A DNA stretch of 64,000 bases from a virus (IMGVR_UViG_3300048091_000424), one strand, 5' to 3'; counted from the first letter of the stretch, positions 11,354 to 26,311 are shown. Made by a program: numbers and translations. The notes: a model not told the origin generated them from the letters alone.

Positions 11354-11421
11354 CCGTCGGAGAAGACAGCAGGTCGACCAGAATGCCTGCTTCCCCTCCT
11401 TGTCTTTCCAGCGGCTTGCAG

Positions 11422-11440: not shown

Positions 11441-11468
11441 TTGAGCAGTAAAAATCGAGGGTCTGATC

Positions 11469-12113
11469 ATGCTCGTTACCTCGCATCGCAATATTGAATT
11501 CACCATGGTGTGCGGGCACAAAGAGATTGTGTCTGACGCTATTCGCGGTTCTCGGCAGATGGCCGAGGAAAGGCGAAACCTGGCCAGCATGCTGTGCTCC
11601 ACATGCGTGAGGGTGCTTGAAGGCTGGCTTAAGGCCGATCATGGTCAGCAGGCCTACCCGATGGACTTCCCGGTGCTCAACGGCGCTTCGGATGCCCAGG
11701 TGAGGTTCGCCTCCGACATGCGCCTGAAAGAATTCAAGAAGTACGGCCCCATCATGCAAACCTTGAGCAAAGACAGCACCGAACTGGCCAAGTTTGCCTG
11801 GCGTGCCCTGTACATGTGCTTCATGGTCACCGATAGCCGCTACTGGCTGGACGAACGGAAGCGATTCAACCATCACGTTTGGGGCGGCGAGATCCAGCGC
11901 CTGATGAAGGAGCCTGGGTTCAGCGACCGTGTATCGTCGTCTTCGGCCTACGGTTTCTTTTACAACAGCCGCGCACGTGACTCGATCAGCTACTTCATGG
12001 CGATCAACCCGGCTTGCGATCTTCAGGGTAAAAACCTGCCATTGATGCGGTTCTGGACGAAGGAAATGTTCAAAACCACGGTGGAGGTAGAGGAAGACCG
12101 GCAGGCGAGTTGA
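11469..12113 (+). CDS. Hypothetical protein (214 aa)
   Basis: Protein-like ORF preceded by promoter motif; preferred over antisense ORF 11424..12194. Confidence 0.55.
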   Translation: MLVTSHRNIEFTMVCGHKEIVSDAIRGSRQMAEERRNLASMLCSTCVRVLEGWLKADHGQQAYPMDFPVLNGASDAQVRFASDMRLKEFKKYGPIMQTLSKDSTELAKFAWRALYMCFMVTDSRYWLDERKRFNHHVWGGEIQRLMKEPGFSDRVSSSSAYGFFYNSRARDSISYFMAINPACDLQGKNLPLMRFWTKEMFKTTVEVEEDRQAS

Positions 12114-12246
12114 AAGGTCGCCCCTTCCGCGCAGCGGGCTCGCTCCAAGGGATTGGAGCAATCTCCACGAACATTTCTGGCCAATTGACGGCATTCATAA
12201 TCAGCTGTAGATTTTGCGATCAAAATTGATTGAGGGGAATTTTTCG

Positions 12247-12642
12247 ATGTTTCGTCGTAAGCCAACATCCATCCACCCAGAACTCAACCGAGCTGCTGCC
12301 AAACGTGCCCGCACCTTCAACGTCGGCATGCTGAAAGTGGTAGCTATCGCAGTGGGTTCCTTGTTGGTCATTGGCGGAACGTGGGCCGTAGCCGAAATGA
12401 GCGCCTCAACGCCTGACCCGGCAAAGTTGCGCATGGCTGAACTCAAAGGGCGCTCTGTCGCCCATACGTTTATCATCGATGCCTACGAGCAGTGCATGGC
12501 GCCAAAAGATGCCAACCGCTACCGCTGCTTGAAGTCGACCGCTGACGCAGCCAAAACGAAGACCATGACCTCCTTCCAAATCATCGGGGTGTTCAAGGAC
12601 TACGGCATCAACATCAACGGCTCTGATTTCCCGGAAATCTAA
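12247..12642 (+). CDS. Small membrane-anchored protein, tandem paralogue A
   Basis: ATG 12247 after GAGGGG; one TM segment; AHTFIIDAYEQC...C block matches AHDQILTAYYQC...C in the next gene. Confidence 0.55.
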   Translation: MFRRKPTSIHPELNRAAAKRARTFNVGMLKVVAIAVGSLLVIGGTWAVAEMSASTPDPAKLRMAELKGRSVAHTFIIDAYEQCMAPKDANRYRCLKSTADAAKTKTMTSFQIIGVFKDYGININGSDFPEI

Positions 12643-12677
12643 GGCCAGTTGTACCTTTTGTGATTATGGAGAGTGGC

Positions 12678-13067
12678 ATGGACGAAACAAACGCTGCAGG
12701 AATCGAAACCACTGCCGTTAAGCACCCGGCGAAACTTCTGGACTGGAAGCCGAAGACCTTCGGGGACTTCCTGCTGGTCGGTGTCGGTGTACTGTTATTT
12801 GCCGGCTTGCTTTGGGCATACATTGCAGCAGGCCTTGATGGCGTCCGTACCCAGGAGCGCCTTGACGAGTTGAGGAGCCGATCACCCGCCCATGATCAGA
12901 TTCTGACGGCCTACTATCAGTGCACGGGGCGGATGCCGTCTGCACCCCTCTCCTGCCTTGGGTCTGTTTCCAAGGGTGCTGAGATGAGCGGGATCAAGCC
13001 TGAAGTGGTCAAGTCAGTGTTGGTCGACGCAGGAATTACGCCCCCATCCGAAGTCAAAGCCCCCTGA
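12678..13067 (+). CDS. Small membrane-anchored protein, tandem paralogue B
   Basis: ATG 12678 after GGAGAG; same architecture as 12247..12642. Confidence 0.55.
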   Translation: MDETNAAGIETTAVKHPAKLLDWKPKTFGDFLLVGVGVLLFAGLLWAYIAAGLDGVRTQERLDELRSRSPAHDQILTAYYQCTGRMPSAPLSCLGSVSKGAEMSGIKPEVVKSVLVDAGITPPSEVKAP

Positions 13068-13116
13068 ATGCTATCAGGGGCTCCGAGCAGAGCACCTGTG
13101 GAAAAGGAGATGAATC

Positions 13117-13467
13117 ATGCAAACGGACTACAACATAGGCGTAAAGCGCCTAAACGAGATCACCGCTTGCCAAAAATGCGGCAACAACGAGGTGAAGGAA
13201 AAACGCCAATGGGCATTGCACTCCTGCGGCCATTGGAACGAATCCGTTGAGTTCGTGTGCGGGGCTAAGTACGAATTCACGCCAAATTTCATGAAAGTCG
13301 GCCTGGCGAAAGTCTGCACCTACGACCCTGAATTCAAGGCTCGCCAGGAACTGACCACCTCCGTGAAGGCTGAGTTTTTTAAGCTGGCGGAGAAGCGCGG
13401 CATTCATCCAGAAGAGATGAAAAGCCTGAGGGACAAGCTCCAATACTGGTATCCCTCAAGCTGGTGA
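13117..13467 (+). CDS. Hypothetical Cys-rich (zinc-ribbon-like) protein
   Basis: AAGGAGA RBS; CQKCG ... HSCGHW ... C pattern. Confidence 0.55.
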   Translation: MQTDYNIGVKRLNEITACQKCGNNEVKEKRQWALHSCGHWNESVEFVCGAKYEFTPNFMKVGLAKVCTYDPEFKARQELTTSVKAEFFKLAEKRGIHPEEMKSLRDKLQYWYPSSW

Positions 13468-13470
13468 ACA

Positions 13471-15204
13471 CTAAAGGTAGGCTGACAACAGCGAGTCTAG
13501 GGGCTTTGAAACCTGGGCCTTAGCAACCTGAACCGTTTCGACAGGCTTCAGGTTGTAGTCGGCTGCCATGTCTTTGTAAACCGCAATCGATGCGTCGACA
13601 TCCGCTTGACTGGCAACCCCGGTGTACCTGGAGTAATGATTCTCCATCGTGGTGTGAATGTCCTCGGCCAATTTCATGGCCAACGGATCATCAGTGCGCT
13701 TGAACAGCATTTTCCTCGTCGCAGAAATCTCGCTCCACATCGCCTTCACTGCGGGTGTGAACATCGTATCCGAGTTAAGGCGCAACTCCCCAGGAAAATA
13801 GGTTCCATCCTTGGCCATGAAGTTCTTCTCCATAAGGAACTTGGCAATCTCCGGAATTTCTTCTTTGGTTTTCATATGGATCGCCGCAGGATCTATCTGC
13901 GGAAAAATCTCATCGAGTGCCCAAGCGGTTTTGTGCGCGTAGTCGTTTACCGTCGAGATTCGCATGGGGCGAATGAGGTCGGTGTACAAATCATTGGTGC
14001 CTGTTTCACGCATGTAATCCAGGCTGGCAACCAGGTCACCGAAGGTTTCCTCAAGGCTGCGTTGATAAGCCAGTTGCATATCAGACAGATCCCTGTCCCC
14101 AGCACCTGGTTGATCCAGCTGGAAGAAACAATGACCCCCTTCGTGTGATTTCATAAAGAAATCCCAAAGGTTTTTGTCTACTAGCATCTCCGGCATGTTG
14201 CTGAATTTGTAGAAATTACCGTCTTTTGTGACCGGGGCAATCTGGTGGTGGTGGACTATACAAAGTGCGCTCTCCGAGGCCTCACCAGGCTCAACCATTT
14301 GAGCTAGGCCTCCCACCTTGTCCGCTGTAAAACTGTCGATGGATTTCTGCAAGGTGTGATCACGGGCATAATTCTTAACCATCTGAATGCCGTCAAATTC
14401 GCCGAACTGGACAATCTTGCGTTCCGAGACCTTGTCCTTGGACAACACTGTTTCTATCGTTGGCCGCGATTGCAGGTCAACCAGACCAAATCCACTGGTG
14501 GTATTCGCAAACCCAGTGGCATAAATGCCGCCAAGAGTAATGCTGGCCAGCACCGCTGCCACCACCCCAAGCTTTAGACCCTTTTTCAGGTAAAGGGTCA
14601 GTGGCTTGTCCTTGAGTGCTTCCACGTCCACAGACGCCGGCGCCGAATCGACCATGGTCAGGAAGTCGCGGCTCTCTGCGCGGTTCTTGTCCACCCACTG
14701 TGATTCTGAAATTTCAGTTTTAACGCTGGTCAGCGACAGGCCTGGGTGGATTGAGGCACAAATTCTGCTGAAACCGCTGTTGAAGTGCTCCAGTGAACCG
14801 ATGTCGTGGCATGCACGCCTGGTCATTTCAACCAATCCGTCGCGAGCGTGCTCGCCGCCTAGCAACGACGTCAGGTCTTGCGCATACATCTCGCCCAGGT
14901 GATTGTTGATGCCACTGTGAAGCGGCTTATAGAGGCGCTCATTGTCGGTCAGCAGTGCACTGGTCAGCATCATGCCCTTTGACTTTGGGCTCAAAGCGTT
15001 CATGAACTCGAGTGATGGGTAGTTGATCTCGGGGTGACTTGCCGTAGCTGACAGGTCGACCAGGCTAGCCAAGACCGGTGAGTAGCCCGCCGAGTCGACG
15101 ACATCTTCAAGGCGAACCTGCCCAACCGCGTATCCGCTTAATGCACCCGACAAATGTAACTTCAGCGCTTCGTTAACCATGTTTTGGGATCTCCTTTCCG
15201 ACAT
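13471..15204 (-). CDS. Membrane-anchored protein with HExxH metalloprotease-type motif
   Basis: 577-aa ORF; one TM segment (LGVVAAVLASITLGGIYATGF); FMKSHEGGHCF contains H-E-x-x-H. Confidence 0.5.
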   Translation of the reverse strand: MSERRSQNMVNEALKLHLSGALSGYAVGQVRLEDVVDSAGYSPVLASLVDLSATASHPEINYPSLEFMNALSPKSKGMMLTSALLTDNERLYKPLHSGINNHLGEMYAQDLTSLLGGEHARDGLVEMTRRACHDIGSLEHFNSGFSRICASIHPGLSLTSVKTEISESQWVDKNRAESRDFLTMVDSAPASVDVEALKDKPLTLYLKKGLKLGVVAAVLASITLGGIYATGFANTTSGFGLVDLQSRPTIETVLSKDKVSERKIVQFGEFDGIQMVKNYARDHTLQKSIDSFTADKVGGLAQMVEPGEASESALCIVHHHQIAPVTKDGNFYKFSNMPEMLVDKNLWDFFMKSHEGGHCFFQLDQPGAGDRDLSDMQLAYQRSLEETFGDLVASLDYMRETGTNDLYTDLIRPMRISTVNDYAHKTAWALDEIFPQIDPAAIHMKTKEEIPEIAKFLMEKNFMAKDGTYFPGELRLNSDTMFTPAVKAMWSEISATRKMLFKRTDDPLAMKLAEDIHTTMENHYSRYTGVASQADVDASIAVYKDMAADYNLKPVETVQVAKAQVSKPLDSLLSAYL

Positions 15205-15260
15205 AATCTCATAGCCGCCTCATGTTGTTCAAAATCCTCGTTTGCATTACATAAAATGGT

Positions 15261-15279
15261 TGTCAATTTAGCCTATATG
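15261..15279 (+). promoter_or_regulatory. Recurrent motif TGTCAATTTA-N3-TATATG (TATAAT also at 15282)
   Basis: Exact 10-mer upstream of the RNA ligase gene. Confidence 0.45.
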
Positions 15280-15433
15280 CTTATAATGATGGCCATTCAT
15301 TCACCTAACCTTTTGCGAGTCGATCATTTGATCAATTCCATGACATTCGCCGGCAGGATCAACTGCCTCGTTTCAGCCTAGCGCCCTTCCCTCGCACATT
15401 TTTGCGGGCCCGGCGCCTGTAGAGATTGCGATC

Positions 15434-16462
15434 ATGAACACCCAATACCTTTTTGATGCCGAACAGTTCCGCGACGCCGTGTTCAAACGGGATCGACGTG
15501 TCTGTGTGTTTTGCTCGGCACCGGCTGAATCAGCCGCACACATCCTGGAATCCCAGCTGTGGGACGACGGCGGCCACTACCTGCAAAATGGCGCCAGCGT
15601 CTGCAGAGAGCACCGACTCGCTTTTGAAATGACACATCTGTTGCCTAAGCAAATTCGGATTGCTGCTCGTATCCCGGAAATACTGGTACCTCAGGACTAC
15701 TTTCCGACCACGCCCTATGACCACTGGGGCAACGAGATTTTGCACAATGGAATGCGTCTGCGCGGTGAGCTGTTTCTCGATGATAATGTCCAGCAGCTAC
15801 TGAGCCAGGGCCGCGTACTGGATCAGTTCACCTGGCAGGTGAAGTACCCAACCACCCCTCACCTACCATGGTCAGAAGGGATTCAGCGGGATGACCGCCT
15901 TCTGCGTGACGTGCTTCACTTCCTGGGTAAGCGCGTCGTCGTCACAATGAAGATGGATGGCGAAAACACCTCGCTTTACAGTGACTACATCCACGCTCGT
16001 TCGCTGGATTCAAGGCACCACGAATCTCGTGACTGGGTGAAAAACTTCTGGGCCAGATTCAAATGGCAAATCCCTGAAGGTTGGAGGATCTGCGGTGAAA
16101 ACCTGTTTGCCCAGCACTCGATCCGGTACAACGATCTGGTGAGCTACTTCAATGGCTTCTCGATCTGGAACGAACGCAACAAGGCGTTGGACTGGGATGA
16201 CACCCTGGGCTACTTCGACATCCTTGGGATCACCCCGGTCGAGGAAATCTACCGTGGCGTCTTTGACCAGAAGTTGATCCACACAGCCTACCTGGAAAAG
16301 TCAAAAGGCAAGGTGTGCGAAGGCTATGTCGTACGCGTGGAGGACGAGTTCGACTTCCGAGATTTCCGCCGTTCGGTGGCCAAGTTTGTCCGCAAAGACC
16401 ATGTGCAAACCAAAGATCACTGGATGACCAGTGAGATCATCCCCAACAAGCTGAAAGGTTGA
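15434..16462 (+). CDS. RNA ligase family protein with N-terminal HNH-like Cys/His module
   Basis: Nucleotidyltransferase motif I KMDGEN, CGEN, EGYVVR, KFVRKDH; N-terminus CVFC...AAHILE...GG...N...C..H resembles an HNH motif. Confidence 0.75.
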   Translation: MNTQYLFDAEQFRDAVFKRDRRVCVFCSAPAESAAHILESQLWDDGGHYLQNGASVCREHRLAFEMTHLLPKQIRIAARIPEILVPQDYFPTTPYDHWGNEILHNGMRLRGELFLDDNVQQLLSQGRVLDQFTWQVKYPTTPHLPWSEGIQRDDRLLRDVLHFLGKRVVVTMKMDGENTSLYSDYIHARSLDSRHHESRDWVKNFWARFKWQIPEGWRICGENLFAQHSIRYNDLVSYFNGFSIWNERNKALDWDDTLGYFDILGITPVEEIYRGVFDQKLIHTAYLEKSKGKVCEGYVVRVEDEFDFRDFRRSVAKFVRKDHVQTKDHWMTSEIIPNKLKG

Positions 16463-16576
16463 TCGCTGCACCACCAGCGGAGTTCGCTGCTTCGCTGTTT
16501 TCAGCGCCTGTTCCCTTGGACTTATTGCCATTAAATTGATATAAGATGGCATAACGAAATCACCAAGGATCTGGCC

Positions 16577-17983
16577 ATGTACATTCGCCCTAAACGCAAT
16601 CACCCTAACGCCGGCCCCCTGCTCACCCGCACCTTGATGCGCCGCGAGGGGTCGGCGTTTGATGCCGCGATTTTTCGTGACGACGGTGATCACTACGCTG
16701 AAGACATTAAGTTCGAGTATCTCCTCTACACGGTACCCTTCTGCCTTCAGCCTGCGTTATTTGGGATTTTTCTGGGCTTCTCCAAGCCGGCCATCACCCG
16801 ATTTTTGAGCCAGGCTGAAGTCAACCTGAGCGACATCGCAGGCCTGGCAACTGATGCGTTTGATCGCGCCGTCATGATTGCGGAAACCGGTGAAGAATTT
16901 ACCCTGTGGCAATTGCAGCGTTACCTGATCGAAGCCATGTCTGGTTGCCCGGTGCGAACCCACGCCATGATCAAGGAACTGCGGTCGAAAGAATTCAGCG
17001 GTAGCATCGGCGAGTCGCTGCTGCACTGTGAAGTACCCGCGTTGTGGGTTAGTAGCCGATTTGGTGGTGATGAGACCTTCACCATGCAGCGCCTACCAAA
17101 AAACATCAATCCAAACCTCTCTTACGAGAGCAATCTGGATATTCCCAATCACTCCTTTCCCGATCTTCTCCGTAGATCCGGTGTACTCAAAGATCAGTAC
17201 ATTCGCAAAGTCTTCGCCCTTCATGATTTCTACGAAGACCTGCTGATCAACCTCAGGGATGGGGAAGGATTAGCATTGCGCATCGTCAACAGCCTGGAGT
17301 TCCTCGATGACGATGAGGTCACCTCCTTTGCTTGGGGGCTGACCAATGCTGTGTTCATCCCAGACACCGACCGCATCGCGCCCCTGGGCGAAGAAAACAG
17401 TACCAATCCCCGTCCGTTGTTCCAGGTGCTGAAAACGCTGATCGAAGAGATGGAGTGCTTTGAGTCAGCCGACACGGTGACAGTAGCGCTCAACTACCTG
17501 CCAGCCGATTACATCGGCAACATTGACCGTGTGCAAGCGGACGAGCTCTACGCTCCTCTCCACGACTTCACCACGGTACTCAATCGTTTCTGTGAGGAAC
17601 TGCTAGAGCTTAATCCACTGGACTTCACCTTGGCCCATTTCACAGCCATGTCGAAGCTGCGCAATTTCCATTTTGCGGACTTCGAGCGGCCACGCCTGAG
17701 TAACACCTGCGTGCTGAGGCACGTAGCCTCCGCCGTTAAAGCTTTCAAGCCTTTTTTCAGCGAGGCGCCGACGCCGAAATGGGAAATCGACAAGCTGGTC
17801 GTGGCTTGCTGGAGGGACTTTGCTGACTTGTTCCGCGAGAAAGATTTTCGCCTCCTGTATGACGCGTCAGAGTTCATCTCCTCTGCGGTGCTCCCTATGA
17901 ACATGATCATGGAATATGACCGAAAATTCCCTGATCTGTGCGAGGATGACAAGAAAATATTGGCACGCTTCGAGGCACTTTAG
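16577..17983 (+). CDS. Hypothetical protein (468 aa), probable divergent relative of the tail family with degenerate C-terminus
   Basis: AAGGA RBS; C-terminal third resembles 48..557 (DFTLAHFTAMSK); ends ILARFEAL instead of FxxDLGL. Confidence 0.6.
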   Translation: MYIRPKRNHPNAGPLLTRTLMRREGSAFDAAIFRDDGDHYAEDIKFEYLLYTVPFCLQPALFGIFLGFSKPAITRFLSQAEVNLSDIAGLATDAFDRAVMIAETGEEFTLWQLQRYLIEAMSGCPVRTHAMIKELRSKEFSGSIGESLLHCEVPALWVSSRFGGDETFTMQRLPKNINPNLSYESNLDIPNHSFPDLLRRSGVLKDQYIRKVFALHDFYEDLLINLRDGEGLALRIVNSLEFLDDDEVTSFAWGLTNAVFIPDTDRIAPLGEENSTNPRPLFQVLKTLIEEMECFESADTVTVALNYLPADYIGNIDRVQADELYAPLHDFTTVLNRFCEELLELNPLDFTLAHFTAMSKLRNFHFADFERPRLSNTCVLRHVASAVKAFKPFFSEAPTPKWEIDKLVVACWRDFADLFREKDFRLLYDASEFISSAVLPMNMIMEYDRKFPDLCEDDKKILARFEAL

Positions 17984-18143
17984 ATCCTTTGAACTTGGGG
18001 TTTTCCACGTGCACAAGGATGAGCAGTGGATCACCTTCGAGGTCATTCAGGAGGATCTGAAGGGTCGCTGAGATACCGATGTGTATTATCTTGATTCCTG
18101 TATACAGCTAAACACAGAATAATATGAAATTCATATGAAGTTA

Positions 18144-18169
18144 ATAGGATAATAATATTATTATCCTAT
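18144..18169. promoter_or_regulatory. Perfect 26-bp palindrome ATAGGATAATAATATTATTATCCTAT (operator-like)
   Basis: Self-complementary by direct reading; a half-site copy ATAGGATTAAAAAATATTAT lies at about 18253..18272 next to TTGACC-N17-TACCAT. Confidence 0.6.
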
Positions 18170-18343
18170 GTATATCGAGTCATGAGTTACTAATTATCTT
18201 CAAGCTGATACTAGTGCAGTCATGGCTCTCGATGTAAAAATGTAAGTTTTTACATAGGATTAAAAAATATTATTTGATGTATTGACCTGCAAAAATCTCA
18301 TCATTACCATTTTATGAAGCTGAAGCTCATATAGGTAATCTTT

Positions 18344-20767
18344 ATGCAAGACTCTCATACGATAAAAATAGAAGCCGCTAAGAAGTCTATCGCCTCAGGA
18401 ATTTTCAACCTGAGCCACCTCGAAGACTTTCGGAGTGAATTTGATAACCTGAGTTGGAAGAAGCTCACTGCCTTCGGCGGTGAGAATATGAATGCCCTTT
18501 CCTCTTCTGACCAGGTTTTTATCAAGGATATTCTGGCCAAAGCCCTTGGGATTGATATTCAGGATTTGACACCTGACAGCTTGTTCAGCCCGCATAGGTC
18601 GTTACAGATTTTGCAGTCCATCAGAGTCGGCCAACCCGTACACGAGTTAATGTGGGAGCTATCAGTAGAGGCCAAGAGATACATCGATCATTTGATACAT
18701 GCTCATGGTGAGGAAAAACCAGTTTTTAAATTCCTGGTCGGAAACCCTGGTTCAGGGAAGACGACCTTTAGAAATCTGCTGCAATCTAAACTAGATCCGA
18801 GTTCTCCAATCATCCATAACACATTTGGCGCACAAACGACTGGGAACACTATTCACCTTGCGTGTGCATTCCTGTTCGATAAGGTAATGATTGATTCAGC
18901 GGCGAAAAAACTAAAGGAAACGAAGCTTCGTGATGCGCGGGCCTACGGGAATATAAAGAAATACGCAATGTCCCACAATTACTATCAGGTGCTGTCTCCT
19001 TTATTTGGCTACGCTGAATCAGATAAAGATGGATCGCTGGCCGAATTTGTTAATGAATATCACAACGCCGTGAACTGTTGGATTAAGAAAGACACAGTTG
19101 GAGAACTTAAATCACTTCAAAGACATTATGGTGAACCCTGCGAGGTAATGCCTAGACCAAAAGAGTCGAATTCAATAAACTTTACTGCACAGATAATGAG
19201 TTTCTATAGCAAGATCGGACTTTATCCGGTTTGGTTAATGGACGAGTTCGAGGCTCACGAATCTCTTTACCGCGCTTATAGAATTAAAGTTTTGGACTAT
19301 TTCCGTGGGTTCTTTGACATTTTATCTGACCCGAGTTCTAAAGGCTTCTGCCTGATTTTCTCCACTGAAGCTGGCATGCACATCATTGATAGCTATCCAG
19401 CTTTAAGTGACAGACTCTCTTCTGGTAAGTATTTTTCGCTCACTCAAGCCATCTGGAGGCTGTCGGCACTAGATAAATGGAATAATGAGTATGCAATCAA
19501 GGTCATAAAGGAGTTGTACCACGCATCAGCTCAAATTGACGATATTTCTGAGGCTGTAGATAGAGCCATAAGCGAACTTGGTGGTGAACTTGACCTTGTA
19601 TTGAACAGAGAGTTCAACAAGGAAGTCGCTAGAAATCGTTTGACCCCAACTGTGACTGGCCTACTTGATCCACTATCTGAACCAGACTCGACAATAAAAA
19701 CAGACATCAAGAAAATCGCCGACAAAATTAAGTCGATTGAAGCCGCTGCAACTCAAGTGACTCGTGCTTGTTATGAACCAGAAATGGAAAACATTAAATC
19801 ACCAACTAGTGACCAGCAACACGCTGGTAACCTAGTCTTAGCTAAGGAAAATTACGACCCTACAGCAGCTGTTGTATTGATGGAGTATGCTGCCGGCAAG
19901 GATCGTAACCGTGATCCGTTCGAAGACGATCCATTCGGTGATGATCAGTTAGTAGAATCTTCAGAAGATGATGACTTCGACAGTTTTGATGGGTTCGAAC
20001 TGCCAAACCTGTACGCAAGTGATTATCGAGGTGAAGCTGATTTTATTGAATACCTAATTAGCTTCGAACATAACATCACCAATATTACAGTCGACAACTT
20101 GAGACCGCAGCAAATCAAGGAAAGTTCAATATTCAACTTCTTTGCGCGTAACAAGCACAAACACTCAGCCAAGTGGCCGGCACAACTGCAATTTAATAAA
20201 AAACCTCTAGAGTTTTCTGGCGAGCTAAATAGTAGTGATTTAAAATTCATTATCAGCGATTTCGAAAAATCCAGGTCACCCTCAAGCCTGGCTAAGAAAT
20301 ACGCAAGGTTTCGTGATTTGGGTGGCCGTTACGAAAACCTTCCATTGCAAATTCAGACTGCGATAGAAGATAAACTACCAGAAATCAACAAGCAATTTAA
20401 CTTCAACCTTAATCTTATTTTATCAGCTGTGGCGAGCGACCACCTCCTACCAACGGTTAAGATAACAGACCTGAAAAGGATACAGTCGGATGGAGACAAC
20501 ATAATCTCTATCCAAGGTCAGTCAGTCACACAACTCGTTCGGTGGAATGTGTTTGAGACGCTGTCTCTTACCAGATCACTTGTTTATGCCTACGCGTTCA
20601 ACTCAGGATATTTCCCACCTGATGCAGAGGTGGATGAGTATGTCCTTGAATGGCACGAAAAATTGGGGATGACGAAAATTACGCCAGATCGAAATGGGGT
20701 TTTCTTCTACTCGAAAGATGGCCTATGGGATAAGGAACTCCAGAATATCCGTAATACGTGGGAATGA
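18344..20767 (+). CDS. Large P-loop NTPase (807 aa) in an AT-rich island
   Basis: Walker A FLVGNPGSGKTTF, Walker B-like VWLMDEFE; acidic linker DPFEDDPFGDDQLVESSEDDDFDSFDGFE; composition visibly AT-richer than the flanks. Confidence 0.8.
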   Translation: MQDSHTIKIEAAKKSIASGIFNLSHLEDFRSEFDNLSWKKLTAFGGENMNALSSSDQVFIKDILAKALGIDIQDLTPDSLFSPHRSLQILQSIRVGQPVHELMWELSVEAKRYIDHLIHAHGEEKPVFKFLVGNPGSGKTTFRNLLQSKLDPSSPIIHNTFGAQTTGNTIHLACAFLFDKVMIDSAAKKLKETKLRDARAYGNIKKYAMSHNYYQVLSPLFGYAESDKDGSLAEFVNEYHNAVNCWIKKDTVGELKSLQRHYGEPCEVMPRPKESNSINFTAQIMSFYSKIGLYPVWLMDEFEAHESLYRAYRIKVLDYFRGFFDILSDPSSKGFCLIFSTEAGMHIIDSYPALSDRLSSGKYFSLTQAIWRLSALDKWNNEYAIKVIKELYHASAQIDDISEAVDRAISELGGELDLVLNREFNKEVARNRLTPTVTGLLDPLSEPDSTIKTDIKKIADKIKSIEAAATQVTRACYEPEMENIKSPTSDQQHAGNLVLAKENYDPTAAVVLMEYAAGKDRNRDPFEDDPFGDDQLVESSEDDDFDSFDGFELPNLYASDYRGEADFIEYLISFEHNITNITVDNLRPQQIKESSIFNFFARNKHKHSAKWPAQLQFNKKPLEFSGELNSSDLKFIISDFEKSRSPSSLAKKYARFRDLGGRYENLPLQIQTAIEDKLPEINKQFNFNLNLILSAVASDHLLPTVKITDLKRIQSDGDNIISIQGQSVTQLVRWNVFETLSLTRSLVYAYAFNSGYFPPDAEVDEYVLEWHEKLGMTKITPDRNGVFFYSKDGLWDKELQNIRNTWE

Positions 20768-20780
20768 CCTTCTCTTAGGC

Positions 20781-20806
20781 AAAAAACCGCCCCCTTCGGG
20801 GGCGGT
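20781..20806. terminator. Strong GC hairpin after the NTPase gene
   Basis: AAAAAA-ACCGCCCC-cttcg-GGGGCGGT; the A-run precedes it, so the U-tract is better on the minus strand. Confidence 0.7.
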
Positions 20807-20910
20807 CTATTGCGCATCCTGGGAAATTTCGAGGCCCAGAAAAGCAACTTTGACGCAGGAATGACGCGCCCCATAAACTGGGGTATGGCAACGTATTTTG
20901 AGTCCAACCC

Positions 20911-21516
20911 ATGCGCAAGCTGCCCAACTTGAAAGATCGGTTTTTCTACCACGGATCCCCGTGCTCCATTGATGTCTTCGACTACAAGTTCGCCGAGAAC
21001 GGGCAGGGATTTGGCTTTTACTTCACCACGGATAAATCCGGCGCCGCAGGCTTTTGCTCCGAAAACCCCATCACCAAGGCGGCGGGGTTACCTTTCGTCC
21101 CGACACTTCACAAAGTCCGCCTAAAGGTAGAAAACCCACTGGGTCACCAGCATGTCCAGGCGCTGACGAAGGCCCAATGCCGGGAGATCATTAAACGCGC
21201 TCCAAACCTCGAGGAAAGGCTCTGGAACACCTGGGATGTCGATAGCCTCGGTGCAGACAAAGCGCTGGATGAGGCAGCCAAGCTCTTTAGCGGCAAGGAT
21301 TGCATCCTCATCAGTACACTCAACCAAATCGCCAACGAATTCTTTGAGGGCGAGATGGGGGCGCTCAGCTCTGCCCTGCGCGACGTGACTGGTTACGACG
21401 GCTTGATCCGCACATGCGGTAAAGATGTGACGATCATGGCCTGGTTCCCTGACCAGGTCGAAATCGTGTCTCGCATCGACCCAGCTCTCGAACTGGATGA
21501 GGCGCCTGCACCATGA
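20911..21516 (+). CDS. Hypothetical protein; possible ADP-ribosyltransferase-like (ART-PolyVal-type) enzyme
   Basis: FYHGS...GFGFYFTT...GYDGLIR...AWFPDQVEIV recalls the H-Y-E ART pattern of polyvalent-protein ARTs (from memory, unverified); stop overlaps next start (ATGA). Confidence 0.5.
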   Translation: MRKLPNLKDRFFYHGSPCSIDVFDYKFAENGQGFGFYFTTDKSGAAGFCSENPITKAAGLPFVPTLHKVRLKVENPLGHQHVQALTKAQCREIIKRAPNLEERLWNTWDVDSLGADKALDEAAKLFSGKDCILISTLNQIANEFFEGEMGALSSALRDVTGYDGLIRTCGKDVTIMAWFPDQVEIVSRIDPALELDEAPAP

Positions 21517-22634
21517 GTGACACTACCCCAAGCGCCTTCGACCAGTTGGTAAAAATCCGCGTTGAAATCCGCAAGCATTGTAAGTCTCAGACTGGCGGCG
21601 ATCCGATGGACGTCTACGACCTCCTGTCCGACTACTGTGACATCTTGGAGCGCCTGGCCACCCAGCGGCAATATTCGGTCATGGCCACGGCCATGGATCG
21701 CCTCAACACCGTCGCTGAAGATTTGTTTCAGCGTCCGCACATGGTGCCGGTGATCGCCGATTTGTTTTTGGAGCGCCTCCCCTTTAGTCACCGCACGGTA
21801 TTCAACCTCGCTGGAAGTTTGACCGGCGTGCTGCGTGAAAACCTGTCGCAACTTGCTGTCGAAAACCTCATAGCCCACGAGGCATTTCTTTCAGATAGGG
21901 ATGAGCATCTCGCAGGTGGCGTTATCCGAAATCTGCTGCGCTATTGCGATAGTCCAGCACCGGCTTTGCAGTACGCGCAGTCGATCCTGCCCCTGTTCAA
22001 TAGTAAGACGTCGGGTTTTGAGTCAGTCCTAAGCGCCATACTCGACAGTAGAACATTGAAAAATATGCCTCATGAGAAATTCCAGCCTTTGGTGGAATGG
22101 GTGTCAGAGCTCGATGTTCTTACCTTGTGCCAAGGGCTAAAGCCGGGCTATGCCACGAAAGAGAGAGTCGCCATCTTCCGCGAAGCGGGCTTACCTCTTC
22201 TCGCCGATGGCCTCTACTATAAAAACAACCAGGTGAACGCTCGGGAGATGATCGAAATCCATAGGCGAACAGGCCTTAAACCCGACGCGGCATACCTTGA
22301 TCAATTCTTCGGCCAGGGTAAAACCCCTGAGGCGAGGGAGCTTCGCGAGCTGCTGAAGTATTCTTTGGCAGTTGAGAACGTTTTCCCACTGGACTGGGAG
22401 GGAATCAAAGCACCGTGGGTCACCAGCTCCCTGGTAGATGCTTTTGCCCGCCTCGAGCAGATGGGTGTAAGACCCCGCTCTCCTGAGGAATGCGAACCGC
22501 TGATTTCACAGTTGGGCGATCACCTTAGAAGCTCGGAAAACATGGACTCGCTGCTCAACAAAAAGACTAAGCCATACCTGCAGATCTCCCATAAATTTAA
22601 CGGCAAGCTGTTTGGCCTAGAACTCGGCCTTTAG
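21513..22634 (+). CDS. FxxDLGL-tail family protein (373 aa), subtype A
   Basis: Ends KLFGLELGL; shares LLKYSLAVENVFP and PRSPEECEPLIS with 25072..26253. Confidence 0.75.
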   Translation: MSDTTPSAFDQLVKIRVEIRKHCKSQTGGDPMDVYDLLSDYCDILERLATQRQYSVMATAMDRLNTVAEDLFQRPHMVPVIADLFLERLPFSHRTVFNLAGSLTGVLRENLSQLAVENLIAHEAFLSDRDEHLAGGVIRNLLRYCDSPAPALQYAQSILPLFNSKTSGFESVLSAILDSRTLKNMPHEKFQPLVEWVSELDVLTLCQGLKPGYATKERVAIFREAGLPLLADGLYYKNNQVNAREMIEIHRRTGLKPDAAYLDQFFGQGKTPEARELRELLKYSLAVENVFPLDWEGIKAPWVTSSLVDAFARLEQMGVRPRSPEECEPLISQLGDHLRSSENMDSLLNKKTKPYLQISHKFNGKLFGLELGL

Positions 22635-22644
22635 GGAATTTTCA

Positions 22645-23841
22645 ATGTCAAACCAAATTGCCCGTGATCTGACGCAAGCCGCACAAGCGCTGATCCGAAC
22701 CGTGAACGGCACCAATCCGGGCGAAGATGTTCTGCACCAACAATTATGGGATCTGGCTAATGCGTGCCATCTGGCCAAGCAAAATGACAGCCTCAATCTC
22801 CTGGCGCGTGCTCACCAGGCGGTAAAGGAAACGACACGAGGGTTCATGAACCTGGTCACACGTCGTGGATGTCCCGATGTCATCGCTCAGTACCTGGAGT
22901 TGTTTCCTCTCCATGAGCAATACGCTGAGGAGTTTTTGCAGATCATTCACGAATCGGAGTGTCTCAATGCGGCAGATAAGAGCCGCTTGCTTGGGGATCT
23001 GGTCGACAATGTTATCAAGCATGAAACCTTCACCGTGAAAAATCAGTTTGGGGGCACCGACTTCTACGACGCCCGCAAGTTTCTGGTGATGAATCTGAAT
23101 GGCTTCGAATTCGAAGAGGGCAAAAGCCTCGACTCCACGCCGCTTGGCAAATTCTGTACGAATCTCTGCGAGATCCGAAACGATGCCGCCGCCATCATAA
23201 TCACCACGTTGAACACGGCGGAAAGTGCCCGGTCGGCCAATGCGGCTGTTGGATACAAAGCTCTAGGATATTGGTTCAATGGTCATCAGCCGGATCTGTT
23301 TTTGGGTGTGATGCGCAACAATCCGTCTGACTACAATACCTTTAACATTGTGCAAACAACGAGGGATACGCTTGAGGCGCCCTACCTCGCCGCTTGCCTC
23401 AATATGCGTTCAATCGATCCTGATTTTGAGATCCTGATCGAAGGCCTTAAAACCTATGAACTCAGGGTTGATGAGACCTTTAAACGCACGATGGCGTACG
23501 ACTCTGATGGAGAGTCAATGCGAACTCTTTCTGAGGGAACTCTGGAGACATTGATCGCATACTCACTCACCGTCGAACATGTCTTGCCCCACGCCATACA
23601 GACTGTTGGGACGAAGTACGACCTCATCACAGCATTGGTCAACGCCGGTCGAGAAGTGGCGAAGCCCGAGTACCAGGCGTTTGATAGCAAAGCCAGGGCT
23701 CAAGAGGTCGTCGACTTTGTAATGGACAGGGTCACCGGGAAAGAGGACTTCTCCCAGATGGAGACCAGTTGGCTACTGCCGTATGCTCAAAAGAACCTTA
23801 CCTACCTCAAGCACGCGTTCAGTCGTGACCTAGGATTGTGA
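22645..23841 (+). CDS. FxxDLGL-tail family protein (398 aa), subtype B
   Basis: Ends NLTYLKHAFSRDLGL; collinear with 23882..25069. Confidence 0.75.
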   Translation: MSNQIARDLTQAAQALIRTVNGTNPGEDVLHQQLWDLANACHLAKQNDSLNLLARAHQAVKETTRGFMNLVTRRGCPDVIAQYLELFPLHEQYAEEFLQIIHESECLNAADKSRLLGDLVDNVIKHETFTVKNQFGGTDFYDARKFLVMNLNGFEFEEGKSLDSTPLGKFCTNLCEIRNDAAAIIITTLNTAESARSANAAVGYKALGYWFNGHQPDLFLGVMRNNPSDYNTFNIVQTTRDTLEAPYLAACLNMRSIDPDFEILIEGLKTYELRVDETFKRTMAYDSDGESMRTLSEGTLETLIAYSLTVEHVLPHAIQTVGTKYDLITALVNAGREVAKPEYQAFDSKARAQEVVDFVMDRVTGKEDFSQMETSWLLPYAQKNLTYLKHAFSRDLGL

Positions 23842-23881
23842 AATGTCTACCCGCCACCCATATCAACGAAGGAACGGATAA

Positions 23882-25069
23882 ATGACAACTCTGACGAGTA
23901 GACTCGCCACAGCGACCAAGGCTTTGCAATCCAGCCTAGAGCTCCGACATCCTTCCCCCGAGGTGTTGATGCAGCAACTGCACGACCTGGCGGAGATCGG
24001 GTATCAAGCCCATGGCACATTCAGCGTCAACCTCTTGGCAAAGCTTGATGGTGCGTTGAAGGACTGCACGCGAGGGCTGATGAGCAACCTGGAACGCAAC
24101 GAACATCCCGAAGTCATCGAGCTATTCCTTCAGCTGTTTCCTGTAAACGACCATTACGTCGTTGAGTTTATGGAAACAATCTGTCGTTGCGGGACTCTGG
24201 ACATAATTGAAAAAAGGAACCTGAGGGAGAAGCTGATTGCCAATGTGATCAATCATGAGACCTTGGCCACCTATGGTCGCGACGCCATCCTGAACCATAG
24301 CGCCGCGATAAACTTCATAGAGGCCAGCATGGACGGGTATGGCGATGGCGGCGAATCAGCTACTGTCGACAAGGTCTTCACTGACTTTTTCAAGTCAATC
24401 GTGCAGACACGATACGAGGGTGCCAATGTGCTTATGCGTGCGCTAAGCGCCAAAGAAGCCAATCCAGGCATCACCAAGCTGGACGGGTGGAAAAAGCTCA
24501 AGGCATGGCTCCTGGACAATGAACAGTTCGTAATCAGTTGCGTGCTAGCCAACGGGATGTCGGATTACAATTCCGCATCCAGCATCCTGCATGCTCAAAA
24601 TAGCTTGGGCTTACCTCACCTGGCCGCTGCCTTGAACCTACGGTCTTCAGATCCAATTTTGAAGGTTCTGGTTGAGGGTCACACCATCTATGGTTTGTCA
24701 GTGGATGAAAGCTTCATGCAGGGTATTGGCCTTACCGACGGTGGAACCCAGCGCAAGTTTGATCATCTTACCCTCGAGTGTCTCCTCGCCTACTCCTTGA
24801 TGATAAAACCCATTTTGCCTGACCCGCTGGAGCCCAAGGCCGCGAACAGCTTGGTTGAGTCTCTTTGCGCGGCTGCCAACATAGTTACTTTTGAGCAGTA
24901 TGAGAGGTTTGACTGCAAACCTAACGCTCAAGCGGTTGTCGACTTTGTGATGGAACGTGTGACCGGAAAAGAGAATTTTGCCCTGCTCGAAGACAGCTGG
25001 CTGCGCCCTTACGCCGAGAAGAACCTGACCTACTTGAAACACGCGTTCACTCGCGATTTGGGATTGTGA
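23882..25069 (+). CDS. FxxDLGL-tail family protein (395 aa), subtype B
   Basis: AAGGAA RBS; ends NLTYLKHAFTRDLGL; AQAVVDFVMERVTGKENF matches AQEVVDFVMDRVTGKEDF. Confidence 0.75.
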   Translation: MTTLTSRLATATKALQSSLELRHPSPEVLMQQLHDLAEIGYQAHGTFSVNLLAKLDGALKDCTRGLMSNLERNEHPEVIELFLQLFPVNDHYVVEFMETICRCGTLDIIEKRNLREKLIANVINHETLATYGRDAILNHSAAINFIEASMDGYGDGGESATVDKVFTDFFKSIVQTRYEGANVLMRALSAKEANPGITKLDGWKKLKAWLLDNEQFVISCVLANGMSDYNSASSILHAQNSLGLPHLAAALNLRSSDPILKVLVEGHTIYGLSVDESFMQGIGLTDGGTQRKFDHLTLECLLAYSLMIKPILPDPLEPKAANSLVESLCAAANIVTFEQYERFDCKPNAQAVVDFVMERVTGKENFALLEDSWLRPYAEKNLTYLKHAFTRDLGL

Positions 25070-25071
25070 TT

Positions 25072-26253
25072 ATGCCCACTCAGAACGCCCTACCCCCCAT
25101 TGTCCGTGACATCAGCCGGTACAATGACTTGCTCACAATCAATAATGAGTTGTACCGATTGGTTGTGACTGATGACCCGGATCCGCTCCTCGTTCACGCG
25201 CTGATGGTCGACTTCATTCAGGGAATGGATGACCTTGCGACCCAGCGCCTGCATGTCCTGGTGGGGAAAGCAGCCGCGATGATGGATGTGACCATTCTGG
25301 ATCTGTTCAAGCGTCCGGCAATTGCTGAAGTCATTTCTGAGTTGTACTTCCAACATTTTCAGGCACCGATTCGTCTGGTGTTCAGTATCGCTGCCGGGCC
25401 GGAAGGCCAACTGCTGACGGATGCATATAGCGATGAGCTGCGTGATGCTTTGGTGGCTCGGGGCGTCGAGAACTTGATCGCCTACGATGCTTTTACCACT
25501 GACACCGACCAGCATCTCATGGATTCGTTGATCATCCACATTCTTCGACTTAGCGAGCAAACTCAGCCAGCAGTGGACTTGTGCGACGCTATTGTGGGAC
25601 GTCGTAATGACAAAAAAGCAGGCATCGATGTCATATTTTCAGCGGTTTACATCGCCATCCAGGACGCAAAATATAAACCCGACGCTACCAGGCCTTTATT
25701 GGCTTGGATGCAGGGCAGGCAAGCTGATTTGGTCAACCAGATGGTCAATACCAAGCAGGGAATTTGGATGGCTATGGAACTGACTGACTTTTTTCAAAGC
25801 AACGGGCTGCAAGATCTTGCGGATCGCTGGTACCTTCGCTCCAGCTACTTGGATTTTCAGCGTTTGTACGCCATTCATCAGCGCTGTGGCTTGAAACCTG
25901 ATCAGGATTATCTGCAGCAATTCATCGCTGCCGATTGCAGCCCATCCATTAAGCTACTGGGTGACTTGCTCAAGTATTCGCTTGCAGTCGAAAATTTTAT
26001 CCCTGACGCCAGTAAACTCACCTTCAAGCCGACCTGGGTCACCAAATCCTTGGTGGATGCCTTCAACACCTTCCGCGAAATGGGCATTGAACCCCGCTCA
26101 CCAAAAGAGTGTGAGCCACTGATTTCCCTTTTGGCTGGGCATTTGAAAAGCGAAGAAACCATGACTCCCCTAATGGCCAAGGAAATCCAGCCCTACATCG
26201 CGATCTCGAATAGCTTCCAGACTAAAATGTTCGGCATGGACTTGGGTCTGTAG
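25072..26253 (+). CDS. FxxDLGL-tail family protein (about 393 aa), subtype A
   Basis: Track ORF 25066..26253; ATG at 25072; ends KMFGMDLGL. Confidence 0.75.
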   Translation: MPTQNALPPIVRDISRYNDLLTINNELYRLVVTDDPDPLLVHALMVDFIQGMDDLATQRLHVLVGKAAAMMDVTILDLFKRPAIAEVISELYFQHFQAPIRLVFSIAAGPEGQLLTDAYSDELRDALVARGVENLIAYDAFTTDTDQHLMDSLIIHILRLSEQTQPAVDLCDAIVGRRNDKKAGIDVIFSAVYIAIQDAKYKPDATRPLLAWMQGRQADLVNQMVNTKQGIWMAMELTDFFQSNGLQDLADRWYLRSSYLDFQRLYAIHQRCGLKPDQDYLQQFIAADCSPSIKLLGDLLKYSLAVENFIPDASKLTFKPTWVTKSLVDAFNTFREMGIEPRSPKECEPLISLLAGHLKSEETMTPLMAKEIQPYIAISNSFQTKMFGMDLGL

Positions 26254-26311
26254 GCCACCACACAAAAAGGGCCATGTAAATTTTTCTGGCTTAAGAATTA
26301 CGGAGTTAACA

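Follow-up and report, generated by a model that had tools for sequence, protein, structure and literature searches.

A recently acquired one-gene island on a Pseudomonas megaplasmid encodes a divergent BrxC/BrxD-type ATPase with a possible role in genetic conflict

We analysed a stretch of 64,000 nucleotides (hereafter the window) from a Pseudomonas megaplasmid of ~1 Mb, in which a co-directional gene cluster is interrupted by a recently acquired, self-contained cassette of one gene (Table 1). The 807-aa product (P0001) is a divergent BrxC/BrxD-type (PF10923) AAA+ ATPase of the ORC/Cdc6 clade. From the ATPase class, the solitary and sporadic distribution of the gene and the neighbourhoods of its homologues, we infer a role in conflict between genetic elements, and we tentatively favour a stand-alone exclusion or defence factor that is carried by mobile elements and directed against phages or rival plasmids.

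Results

Composition and boundaries of the island

The GC content of positions 17977–20847 is 0.421, compared with 0.530 ± 0.015 in 20 equal-size non-overlapping windows of the same stretch (z = −7.2), the lowest of which outside the island reaches 0.487. A 500-bp GC profile dips to 0.37–0.45 between ~17750 and 20750, GC3 of the 807-aa gene is 0.443 (0.649 ± 0.065 for the 54 other ORFs; z = −3.2) and the tetranucleotide distance of the island from the remaining window corresponds to z = 12.5. Together with the sliding-window check, these GC, GC3 and tetranucleotide statistics bear out an AT-rich island at ~18000–20770 that had been proposed in a first-pass annotation made from the sequence alone.

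Comparison using blastn showed that the island is missing from two related plasmids of ~1.1 Mb, P. serbica IT-P366 (85 bp in place of the island; flanks 93.8% and 95.2% identical) and P. silesiensis pPL1 (90 bp; flanks 72–85% identical). Because both related megaplasmids have only 85–90 bp at this site, the acquisition is recent, and the island is the sole large indel over ~20 kb of flanks that are 94–95% identical. The junctions, predicted near 18000 and 20810, map to 17983/17984 and ~20816–20847; homology to the empty site starts again at TCCTGGG (~20817), and the island-bearing sequence lacks 45 bp of the empty site. ATCCT at 17984–17988 recurs at 20816–20820, a weak 5-bp repeat that may be due to chance. 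The left-junction segment is touched by short ORFs only (22–59 aa) and is possibly left over from the donor context. No Rfam match was obtained on the island, and a transposon, insertion sequence or integrative cassette was rejected because the island contains no terminal inverted repeats, recombinase or convincing target duplication.

The first-pass annotation had proposed a horizontally acquired conflict gene and had named three outcomes that would speak against it, namely ordinary composition, a gene belonging to the conserved core of all relatives or a housekeeping function assigned by profile searches. None of these was found: the composition deviates, the gene lies outside the conserved core and is missing from both related megaplasmids found, and curated profile searches of the protein assigned no housekeeping function. 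The 468-aa gene upstream of the island is retained in the relatives that lack the island and was therefore rejected as a partner; an ART-PolyVal gene lies directly downstream. The related plasmid pPL1 is typed as non-mobilizable, and no relaxase or type IV secretion system (T4SS) domains were detected among the window ORFs scanned. The window is also rich in tRNA-repair and tRNA-supply functions (an RNA ligase, a nucleotidyltransferase of the poly(A)/CCA-adding family, PTH2 and 11 tRNAs).

Table 1. Positions of the island, its gene and the associated sequence elements (numbered from the first nucleotide of the window).
Feature	Position	Strand	Basis or remark
Acquired island, 2.9 kb, one gene	17984–20847	.	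blastn breakpoints versus empty sites; low GC
Left-junction segment, ordinary GC, no counterpart at empty sites	17984–18075	.	sequence comparison
AT-rich upstream (candidate regulatory) region	18076–18343	+	GC 0.37 in the 18000–18499 window
Perfect 26-bp palindrome ATAGGATAATAATATTATTATCCTAT	18144–18169	.	single occurrence in the window; 0/100 shuffles match
Third half-site CATAGGAT	18253–18260	.	palindrome half-site search
Sigma-70-like promoter candidate, TTGACC / 17-bp spacer / TACCAT	18282–18310	+	consensus match only
CDS, 807-aa protein (P0001)	18344–20767	+	ORF call
N-terminal helical extension, aa 1–122	18344–18709	+	AlphaFold pLDDT mostly 88–97; 75–78 in two 10-residue blocks
Family motif LRxGQP, aa 89–99 (ILQSIRVGQPV)	18608–18640	+	R94, G96, Q97 and P98 nearly invariant
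AAA+ core, aa 123–376	18710–19471	+	invariant columns; fold matches
Walker A GNPGSGKTT; FLVGNPGSGKTTF at aa 130–142	18731–18769	+	motif
Walker B VWLMDEFE, aa 296–303	19229–19252	+	motif
FSTEAG, putative sensor 1	19358–19375	+	inferred from ORC/Cdc6-clade motif order
YPALSDRL, putative arginine finger R357	19394–19417	+	inferred from ORC/Cdc6-clade motif order
Helical lid, aa 377–476, carrying R430 (putative sensor 2) and D442, both invariant	19472–19771	+	alignment, AlphaFold; PF10923 hits of relatives reach profile position ~400–409 of 414
Disordered acidic linker, aa 477–594, ~118 aa	19772–20125	+	pLDDT < 50
C-terminal alpha/beta domain, aa 595–807, ~213 aa	20126–20764	+	pLDDT mostly 81–95 over aa 611–800, lower in three blocks
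GC-rich hairpin right after the stop codon, GCAAAAAACCGCCCCC-TTC-GGGGGCGGTCTATTGC	20779–20813	+	inverted-repeat search
Right junction, with the ancestral intergenic hairpin CTGGG...CCCAG in diverged form	20816–20847	.	same hairpin at empty sites

Architecture of the 807-aa protein

The single P-loop ORF with an acidic linker that had been described from the sequence is present, together with all the motifs quoted for it, and an identical protein is encoded on five metagenomic contigs from at least four different samples. An AlphaFold model of the protein has a pLDDT of 81.2 and a pTM of 0.72 (single-sequence prediction was uninformative, with a pLDDT of 36.7). The AAA+ core carries a helical insert of ~135 aa between strand 2 and strand 3. 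Across 37 family sequences, G133, G136, G138, K139, E301, E303, R321, D325 and R357 are invariant columns of the core; invariance extends to the lid residue R430, and D300 and T341 are almost invariant.

What had been taken for a C-terminal domain of about 270 aa consists of a disordered acidic linker of ~118 aa (477–594) and a folded domain of ~213 aa (595–807). The linker contains 29 D/E versus 8 K/R (pI 4.05), with an acidic stretch at aa 524–552 and the motifs DPF, DDPF and DDDFDSFDGFE. Its sequence is not conserved, and it is net negative in 35 of the 37 family members. The pattern [DE]x0-1PF, which was picked post hoc, occurs in 12 of the 37 linkers versus 2.9 ± 1.6 in shuffles. In the C-terminal domain, R657, D658, R744, Y748, D760, D764, R783, G785 and F788 are conserved. 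A profile of this domain matched nothing in Pfam or among PDB sequences and displayed no recognisable effector motif, and a word-indexed protein search with the domain alignment gave no return; on these sequence comparisons, the domain has no detectable relatives outside the family.

ATPase class and comparison with known systems

Individually, the protein falls below curated thresholds: it scores 17.9 bits on PF10923 (BrxC_BrxD, formerly DUF2791; gathering cutoff, 22.2) and 12.5 bits on the NCBIfam BrxD model NF033438 (cutoff, 350), and aligns with the PADLOC BrxD model over aa 82–148 only (E = 0.005). PADLOC-DB v2.0.0 returned this BrxD match and IetA (E = 0.019) only, with partner genes absent. 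Its homologues (E down to 4e-132) are more readily classified. PF10923 matches 28 of the 37 family members (best E = 1.9e-14), eight of ten re-tested relatives pass the gathering score (profile positions 41–86 and 191–409 of 414), the PADLOC BrxD model matches 19 of 37, and one relative is labelled by NCBI as a 'BREX system ATP-binding domain-containing protein'. Judged by these profiles, membership of the PF10923 superfamily follows by transitivity through the homologues, although the query itself is sub-threshold. The top fold matches of the AlphaFold model are ORC4 and Cdc6, with Orc1, TnsC and BrxC also found; a likeness to ORC/Cdc6 or BrxD/DUF2791 ATPases, noted in the first-pass annotation, is borne out by both the profile and the fold matches. 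Placement in the ORC/Cdc6 clade is based on the closest AAA+ fold and on conserved Walker A and B motifs, sensor 1, arginine finger and sensor 2, labels that were assigned from motif order. The protein itself had no match among PDB sequences, the family profile had P-loop matches only, and a search of viral folds in BFVD gave no significant match.

BrxD and BrxC are the characterised PF10923 members, and BrxD is a stand-alone ATPase of ~420–440 aa that has no extra domains and is paired with the BrxHI helicase in a BREX operon (PMC12839542). The 807-aa protein resembles BrxD, the ATPase of type-2 BREX/Pgl, in its sequence superfamily (at the level of the family), its ORC/Cdc6-type AAA+ fold and a conserved R-x-G-x-P-type segment before the P-loop, where the BrxD models align (aa 82–148). 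It differs in having the acidic disordered linker and the novel C-terminal domain, neither of which is present in BrxD, and its gene is solitary and below all curated cutoffs, whereas brxD sits in a BREX operon. Assignment to BrxD or to a BREX system was rejected on the basis of the missed cutoffs, the extra domains and the lack of BrxHI/BREX linkage. BrxC/PglY, the core ATPase of BREX, bears different C-terminal domains and acts together with BrxB, PglZ and PglX, all of which are absent here. With Orc1/Cdc6 and ORC4, the protein shares Walker A and B, sensor 1, the SRL-like arginine-finger motif YPALSDRL, the sensor-2 arginine and the order of ATPase then C-terminal domain; it differs from them in the lack of sequence-level similarity (identity 9–14%), in having the ~135-aa helical insert in place of a short initiator-specific motif and the ~118-aa acidic disordered linker between ATPase and C-terminal domain, and in being dispensable for the replicon. 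Unlike TnsC/MuB, AAA+ ATPases that select transposition targets, it is accompanied by neither a transposase nor TniQ, and transposon ends are missing from the island. IetA is likewise a defence-associated ATPase and is matched weakly (aa 82–150, E = 0.019, far from significant), but no IetS-type protease partner is present at the 807-aa gene.

Upstream region and terminator

The region upstream of the gene had been described as a dedicated regulatory region with operators. It contains a unique 26-bp palindrome, a further half-site and a sigma-70-like site, in partial agreement with this description; the candidate operators amount to one palindrome. A dimeric DNA-binding protein may use ATAGGATAATAATATTATTATCCTAT as its operator. 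Sigma-70-like sites number 7 in the region versus 6.1 expected. No plausibly coding ORF was found in the region, and a small upstream regulator gene was rejected on this ground; no direct-repeat family or iteron-like repeats were found upstream of the gene, only palindromes. A different palindrome (32 bp) lies upstream of the gene at the locus of the closest homologue. The hairpin that follows the stop codon is probably a terminator that forms part of the island; it was not called by a simple terminator scan because it lacks a T-run.

Distribution and genomic neighbourhoods

This is a very rare family, made up mostly of singleton clusters. Word-indexed protein searches with the protein or the family alignment returned the query alone; tblastn gave no match in 72,556 PLSDB plasmids or in INPHARED phages; locus scans with the family detected nothing in GTDB species genomes or IMG/VR viral contigs and a single additional locus in JGI metagenomes. 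The closest homologue (36% identity) is also a low-GC gene (0.39 versus 0.53) and lies in an unrelated context; kinship of its locus with the megaplasmid was rejected, as the gene alone is in common.

All-against-all BLASTP of neighbours at 12 loci revealed no conserved neighbour or partner, and no BREX genes (BrxHI, BrxC, PglX, PglZ or PglW) were found in the island, its flanks or 10 homologous loci. The homologous loci include defence-type neighbours (type I restriction–modification, GmrSD_N, an Mrr_N-methylase, a RES toxin and a HEC-07-like protein), and PADLOC on 10 neighbours gave weak matches only, to HEC-07 and helicase models. About half of the loci carry counter-defence or establishment genes and no defence genes. 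A PF03230 Antirestrict (ArdA-like) protein is encoded by the divergently oriented neighbour of homologue P0021; P0006 adjoins ArdC-N and MPTase-PolyVal, TraD and Fic genes, with a homologue of the window's ART-PolyVal gene also nearby; P0010 adjoins an orphan DNA methylase; a 6240-aa LPD23/ART-PolyVal polyvalent protein is encoded near P0011; and the surroundings of P0019 include ParB_N and Prok-E2/ThiF/Ub genes. This evidence consists of individual loci, as the family is too rare for enrichment statistics. The gene is always solitary, on mobile elements and amid anti-restriction/polyvalent and defence genes.

Discussion

Proposed function and its alternatives

The PF10923 class is tied to defence because its characterised members are BrxD and BrxC, and a stand-alone exclusion or defence factor is a possible, if tentative, explanation of the gene. 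By analogy with ORC/Cdc6, TnsC and BrxC, the ATPase would probably act as an ATP-dependent, oligomerising DNA-binding switch, and the acidic linker would probably serve as an intramolecular DNA mimic that holds the DNA-binding surface closed. The role of sensor or effector would fall to the C-terminal domain, which would link the switch to recognition of a foreign DNA or protein. Incoming DNA would perhaps be sequestered or marked, given that no nuclease motif is present. A repressor bound at the upstream palindrome, possibly the 807-aa protein itself, could keep expression low.

A somewhat unlikely alternative is that the protein is a counter-defence or establishment factor that aids the survival of the mobile element in its host, whether by poisoning BREX-type complexes as a decoy that resembles BrxC/BrxD, by coating or marking the element's own DNA, or through a linker that mimics DNA or an SSB tail and titrates host restriction or repair proteins. 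The recurring anti-restriction/polyvalent neighbours (at the P0021, P0006, P0010, P0011 and P0019 loci, and the ART-PolyVal gene downstream in the window) point in this direction, but because the hotspots of defence genes are also those of anti-defence genes, neighbourhood cannot tell one from the other; the gene was, moreover, inserted alone, with no accompanying anti-defence island. The abundance of tRNA-repair and tRNA-supply functions in the window would also fit. The leading regions of plasmids, beside oriT, are where anti-defence genes concentrate, encoded on the T-strand and often with single-stranded DNA promoters (PMC11541004); prediction places the megaplasmid type among the non-mobilizable ones, and this logic is therefore inapplicable to the copy studied here. 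The strongly acidic linker with its enriched [DE]PF motif is suggestive, although the motif was chosen post hoc and is internal, whereas that of SSB is C-terminal. An 800-aa AAA+ enzyme with intact catalytic residues would also be atypical among known anti-defence proteins. Between these two readings, we lean towards exclusion or defence.

That the cassette serves DNA maintenance—as an ORC/Cdc6-like initiator, a partition ATPase or a transcription-regulatory ATPase that binds the upstream palindromic region, within a captured rep–ori-like or autoregulated cassette—seems clearly unlikely to us. The best structural matches are initiators (ORC4, Cdc6 and Orc1), the perfect 26-bp palindrome sits in an AT-rich region immediately before the gene, the closest homologue likewise has a long upstream palindrome, and the C-terminal end of the model (helix, helix, two strands) would be compatible with a winged-helix-like unit. 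The sequence family, however, is that of the BREX BrxC/BrxD ATPases rather than Orc1/Cdc6 or DnaA, and the neighbours are conflict genes rather than replication or partition genes, with one ParB_N exception. Absence of the family from 72,556 PLSDB plasmids would be odd for a replicon type. A rep–ori module or replication initiator with a cognate origin was rejected since the upstream region lacks iteron-like direct repeats and both sister megaplasmids persist without the gene. The least probable account is a functionless passenger, a recently transferred gene that stays silent, for instance through silencing of its AT-rich DNA as foreign in Pseudomonas, and plays no part in this replicon. The strongly atypical GC content, the close relatives that lack the gene with no visible consequence, and the rarity of a family of mostly singleton clusters are consistent with a passenger, but the 807-aa ORF is intact and retains all family-invariant residues, the identical protein recurs on five contigs from at least four samples, and a promoter-like site, a palindrome and a terminator hairpin all lie within the cassette.

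A more specific proposal, which we regard as doubtful when taken as a whole, is an undescribed single-gene conflict system in which a BrxD-like, ORC-type AAA+ DNA clamp, a [DE]PF linker that mimics DNA or an SSB tail and a new sensor/effector domain would form a nuclease-free exclusion factor that sequesters DNA, or a BREX decoy, encoded by an autoregulated one-gene cassette that moves between mobile elements.

Implications

Little is understood of how the BREX-type ATPases BrxC and BrxD work biochemically, and these proteins have so far been known inside multi-gene systems only. The protein described here represents a solitary, mobile version of this class, fused to a new domain through an acidic linker that is conserved in the family. 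The island is an unusually clean case of recent single-gene gain by ~1-Mb Pseudomonas megaplasmids, the accessory biology of which is largely unknown. If the gene has a phenotype, it would provide a minimal, genetically tractable model for what the BREX-type ATPase class detects and what it does, and a new entry in the catalogue of defence or anti-defence systems.

Composition and acquisition of the island

Sliding-window analysis (500 bp) showed that GC content drops from 0.52–0.55 to 0.37–0.45 at approximately 17750–20750 and then recovers to 0.54–0.57. The segment at 17977–20847 has a GC content of 0.421, compared with 0.530 ± 0.015 in 20 equal-sized non-overlapping windows (z = −7.2), and the lowest value among sliding windows outside the island was 0.487. 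The island holds a single long open reading frame (ORF; 807 amino acids), whose GC3 (0.443 versus 0.649 ± 0.065 in 54 other ORFs; z = −3.2) and tetranucleotide distance from the remaining window (z = 12.5) are likewise atypical, confirming the compositional island that the first-pass annotation had described by eye; the protein motifs quoted there were all found in the translated ORF, in the order given. A regulatory region with dedicated operators had also been proposed. A palindrome, a third half-site and a sigma-70-like site indeed lie upstream of the gene, and an ORF check of the 360 bp 5′ of it found no credible ORF; the operators themselves are putative.

Metagenomic contigs, the longest of 1,077,129 bp, encode the identical 807-amino-acid protein, and two named plasmids proved to be relatives of this replicon: pPL1 of Pseudomonas silesiensis (1.17 Mb) and 'plasmid unnamed1' of P. 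serbica IT-P366 (1.06 Mb). The island is missing from both. The P. serbica plasmid aligns with window positions 8561–17983 (93.8% identity) and 20848–28754 (95.2%) and carries 85 bp in place of the intervening 2,864 bp, and pPL1 aligns in blocks (15260–17976 and 20848–23030) with the same breakpoints and 90 bp at the site. Comparison of the empty sites with the window placed the left junction directly 3′ of the stop codon that ends the 468-amino-acid gene upstream; homology on the right restarts at around 20817, at a conserved intergenic hairpin; it revealed no terminal inverted repeats, recombinase or convincing target duplication at the island. The two island ends share nothing more than ATCCT, and the window lacks 45 bp of the empty-site sequence. 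The empty-site comparison and the foreign composition together indicate recent gain of the island rather than loss in the relatives.

Features of the window
Feature	Coordinates	Strand	Remark
807-aa ATPase gene	18344–20767	+	
Perfect 26-bp palindrome	18144–18169		Unique in window; candidate operator
Third half-site of palindrome	18253–18260		Upstream region
Sigma-70-like site	18282–18310		Upstream region; candidate promoter
GC-rich hairpin	20779–20813		Directly 3′ of stop codon
Acidic linker (coding)	19772–20125		
Peptidase M15	2903–3493		
dCTP deaminase	4233–4799		
Non-specific endonuclease	5227–6120		
R2K ATP-grasp protein	7477–8361		
PTH2-like hydrolase	8535–9278	−	
Sigma-70 factor	10541–11353		
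577-aa ORF	13471–15204	−	
RNA ligase	15434–16462		
Five tandem paralogues	21513–27514		373–400 aa
DHFR	28174–28662		
PgpA	28649–29152		
180-aa ORF	29171–29713	−	
11-tRNA array	33172–35083		Asn, Leu ×2, Glu ×3, Asp ×3, Arg ×2

Other features of the window

None of the window ORFs scanned had phage structural or type IV secretion domains. The megaplasmid carries an array of 11 tRNA genes which, with the RNA ligase, the PTH2-like hydrolase and a PolyA_pol-family (poly(A)/CCA-adding) nucleotidyltransferase, resembles the sets of tRNA supply and repair functions seen in jumbo phages. Ter-type stress/conflict genes (two TerD, TerC, DUF475 and ATPgrasp_Ter) and a Band_7 gene are also encoded. Directly 3′ of the ART-PolyVal gene, five tandem paralogues with C termini of the type KNLTYLKHAF(S/T)RDLGL or similar are kept in both related plasmids, and none of the four scanned matched Pfam. 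A second indel (13638–15260) separates the window from pPL1, in which approximately 27 bp stand in place of most of the 577-amino-acid ORF; this region has ordinary GC content, and the P. serbica plasmid retains it. With a GC content of 0.372 (GC3 0.337), the 180-amino-acid ORF is the lowest in the window, and it matched nothing in Pfam; the equivalent region of pPL1 is also low in GC, making this a conserved feature, unlike the 807-amino-acid gene.

A rare family of ORC/Cdc6-clade ATPases

Searches of curated libraries gave the query protein sub-threshold matches alone, centred on the P-loop: 17.9 bits against a cutoff of 22.2 for PF10923 (BrxC_BrxD) and 12.5 bits against 350 for NCBIfam BrxD, with PADLOC BrxD (E = 0.005) and IetA (E = 0.019) both matching residues 82–150. 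Scanning 1.84 billion cluster representatives exhaustively with HMMER recovered 37 further proteins (22–36% identity to the query; E-values of 4e-132 to 1e-3), all of 677–1061 amino acids save one fragment of 280. The family is real and extremely rare: each of ten clusters looked up had one or two members, and no homologues were found in 72,556 PLSDB plasmids, INPHARED phages, IMG/VR or (by motif) GTDB species genomes. One relative, from Geopseudomonas aromaticivorans, is annotated as 'BREX system ATP-binding domain-containing protein', and another is a hypothetical protein of a Marinobacter metagenome-assembled genome. In the 280-residue member (P0035; L015, 294–1136, on a 1.3-kb contig) the ATPase is seemingly absent: a segment weakly matching the N-terminal extension (residues 13–76; E = 0.012) appears to lead straight into the C-terminal domain (residues 612–780; E = 1e-18). 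A natural variant lacking the ATPase and a decayed copy are both conceivable.

Among the 37 relatives, 28 match PF10923 (best E-value, 1.9e-14) and 19 the PADLOC BrxD model; eight of ten re-tested passed the Pfam gathering score, with coverage of the P-loop region and profile positions 191–409 of 414. An AlphaFold2 model built with the 37-sequence alignment was confident overall (pLDDT 81.2, pTM 0.72), with values mostly above 85–90 for residues 1–476 and approximately 81–95 for most of residues 595–807, a disordered stretch between them (477–594) and a helical insert of around 135 residues between strands 2 and 3. On the basis of these matches and the model, the ATPase is therefore an AAA+ of the ORC/Cdc6 clade that belongs by sequence to the BrxC/BrxD family, in line with the resemblance noted in the first-pass annotation; the query itself, with its sub-threshold score, would be a PF10923 superfamily member by transitivity, by way of its relatives. 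Conserved motifs of the ATPase part include LRxGQP N-terminal to the P-loop, Walker A (GxxGxGKTT), Walker B (YPVWLxDEFE), LGFFRDxxD, FSTxDG, YPALxDRL, SPTW, R430 and D442. K139, D300/E301, T341, R357 and R430 are invariant or nearly so and, with motif names assigned from the ORC/Cdc6 motif order, probably represent the full set expected for ATP hydrolysis and inter-subunit communication. Identity with BrxD was rejected, given scores below cutoffs, a different architecture and no BrxHI or BREX linkage.

The linker (residues 477–594) has 29 D/E against 8 K/R (pI 4.05). Net negative charge is kept in 35/37 members although neither length (28–226 residues) nor sequence is conserved, so acidity is a selected physical property. 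Short acidic–aromatic motifs (DPF, DDPF, DDDF, DLPF and EPF) recur in the disordered linkers of the family alignment; [DE]x0-1PF occurs in 12/37 linkers versus 2.9 ± 1.6 in composition-preserving shuffles, a possible lead only, because the pattern was chosen post hoc. These motifs resemble the acidic C-terminal tip of SSB. The C-terminal domain (residues 595–807) has invariant residues (R657, D658, R744, Y748, D760, D764, R783, G785 and F788) and conserved motifs (RDxGG, RxFxY, D..VD..VL and SRxGxxF), no match among Pfam and PDB sequences, and no evident nuclease-type motif.

Genomic neighbourhoods of the homologues

When neighbours were compared all against all, no conserved partner emerged for the gene, which is solitary in each of the ten further loci. 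Its surroundings are accessory regions of mobile elements. Neighbours of counter-defence or establishment type comprise an ArdA-like Antirestrict protein, PAPS reductase and RES toxin; ArdC-N/MPTase-PolyVal, TraD and Fic; an orphan DNA methylase; a 6240-amino-acid polyvalent protein; and ParB_N with Prok-E2/ThiF/Ub genes. Those of defence type are a type I restriction–modification system, GmrSD_N and Mrr_N-methylase, and an HEC-07-like protein. Near family member P0006 lies a homologue of the ART-PolyVal gene that is found downstream in the window, and a Fic protein is common to two loci. Four homologues are 9–14 GC points below their own flanks, including the closest, whose context is unrelated to that of the window. 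Approximately 135–165 bp 5′ of the start codon of this closest homologue lies a 32-bp near-perfect palindrome (L006, 5065–5096; AATACCCTAACACATA/TATCTGTTAGGGTATT), which parallels the 26-bp palindrome of the window in a different sequence. The 6240-amino-acid protein, in which LPD23 and ART-PolyVal domains are repeated (L013, 1–3890), lies around 6 kb 5′ of homologue P0011 on a 504-kb Geopseudomonas aromaticivorans contig, with an IS605-type TnpA/TnpB pair between the two.

Possible function

The island is a recently acquired, solitary, mobile-element-borne one-gene cassette, and its product combines an ORC-clade AAA+ ATPase of BrxC/BrxD type with a disordered linker, conserved in its acidity, and a novel C-terminal domain. 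We tentatively favour a role in exclusion or defence, at somewhat less than an even chance, because defence is the role of every characterized member of this ATPase family (PMC12839542) and the gene occurs sporadically, as defence cargo does. A role in counter-defence or establishment is rather unlikely: anti-restriction and polyvalent-protein neighbours, read through the context concept for anti-defence neighbourhoods (PMC11541004), and the DNA-mimic-like linker speak for it, but it is weakened by the prediction that plasmids of this type are non-mobilizable, and a large AAA+ enzyme with intact catalytic residues would be unusual for such a task.

Replication or partition is improbable for a dispensable gene that lacks iterons and is absent from plasmid databases, and a silent passenger is a still fainter prospect given the intact motifs and the fact that contigs from several samples encode the identical protein.

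The ATPase probably acts as an ATP-dependent, oligomerizing DNA-binding switch, similar in working mode to ORC/Cdc6, TnsC and BrxC-type switches, that the acidic linker would hold in check and for which the C-terminal domain would serve as sensor or effector. Neither this architecture nor the solitary way in which the cassette occurs is represented in Pfam, NCBIfam, PADLOC 2023 or PHROGs, and the cassette is a well-defined, testable candidate.
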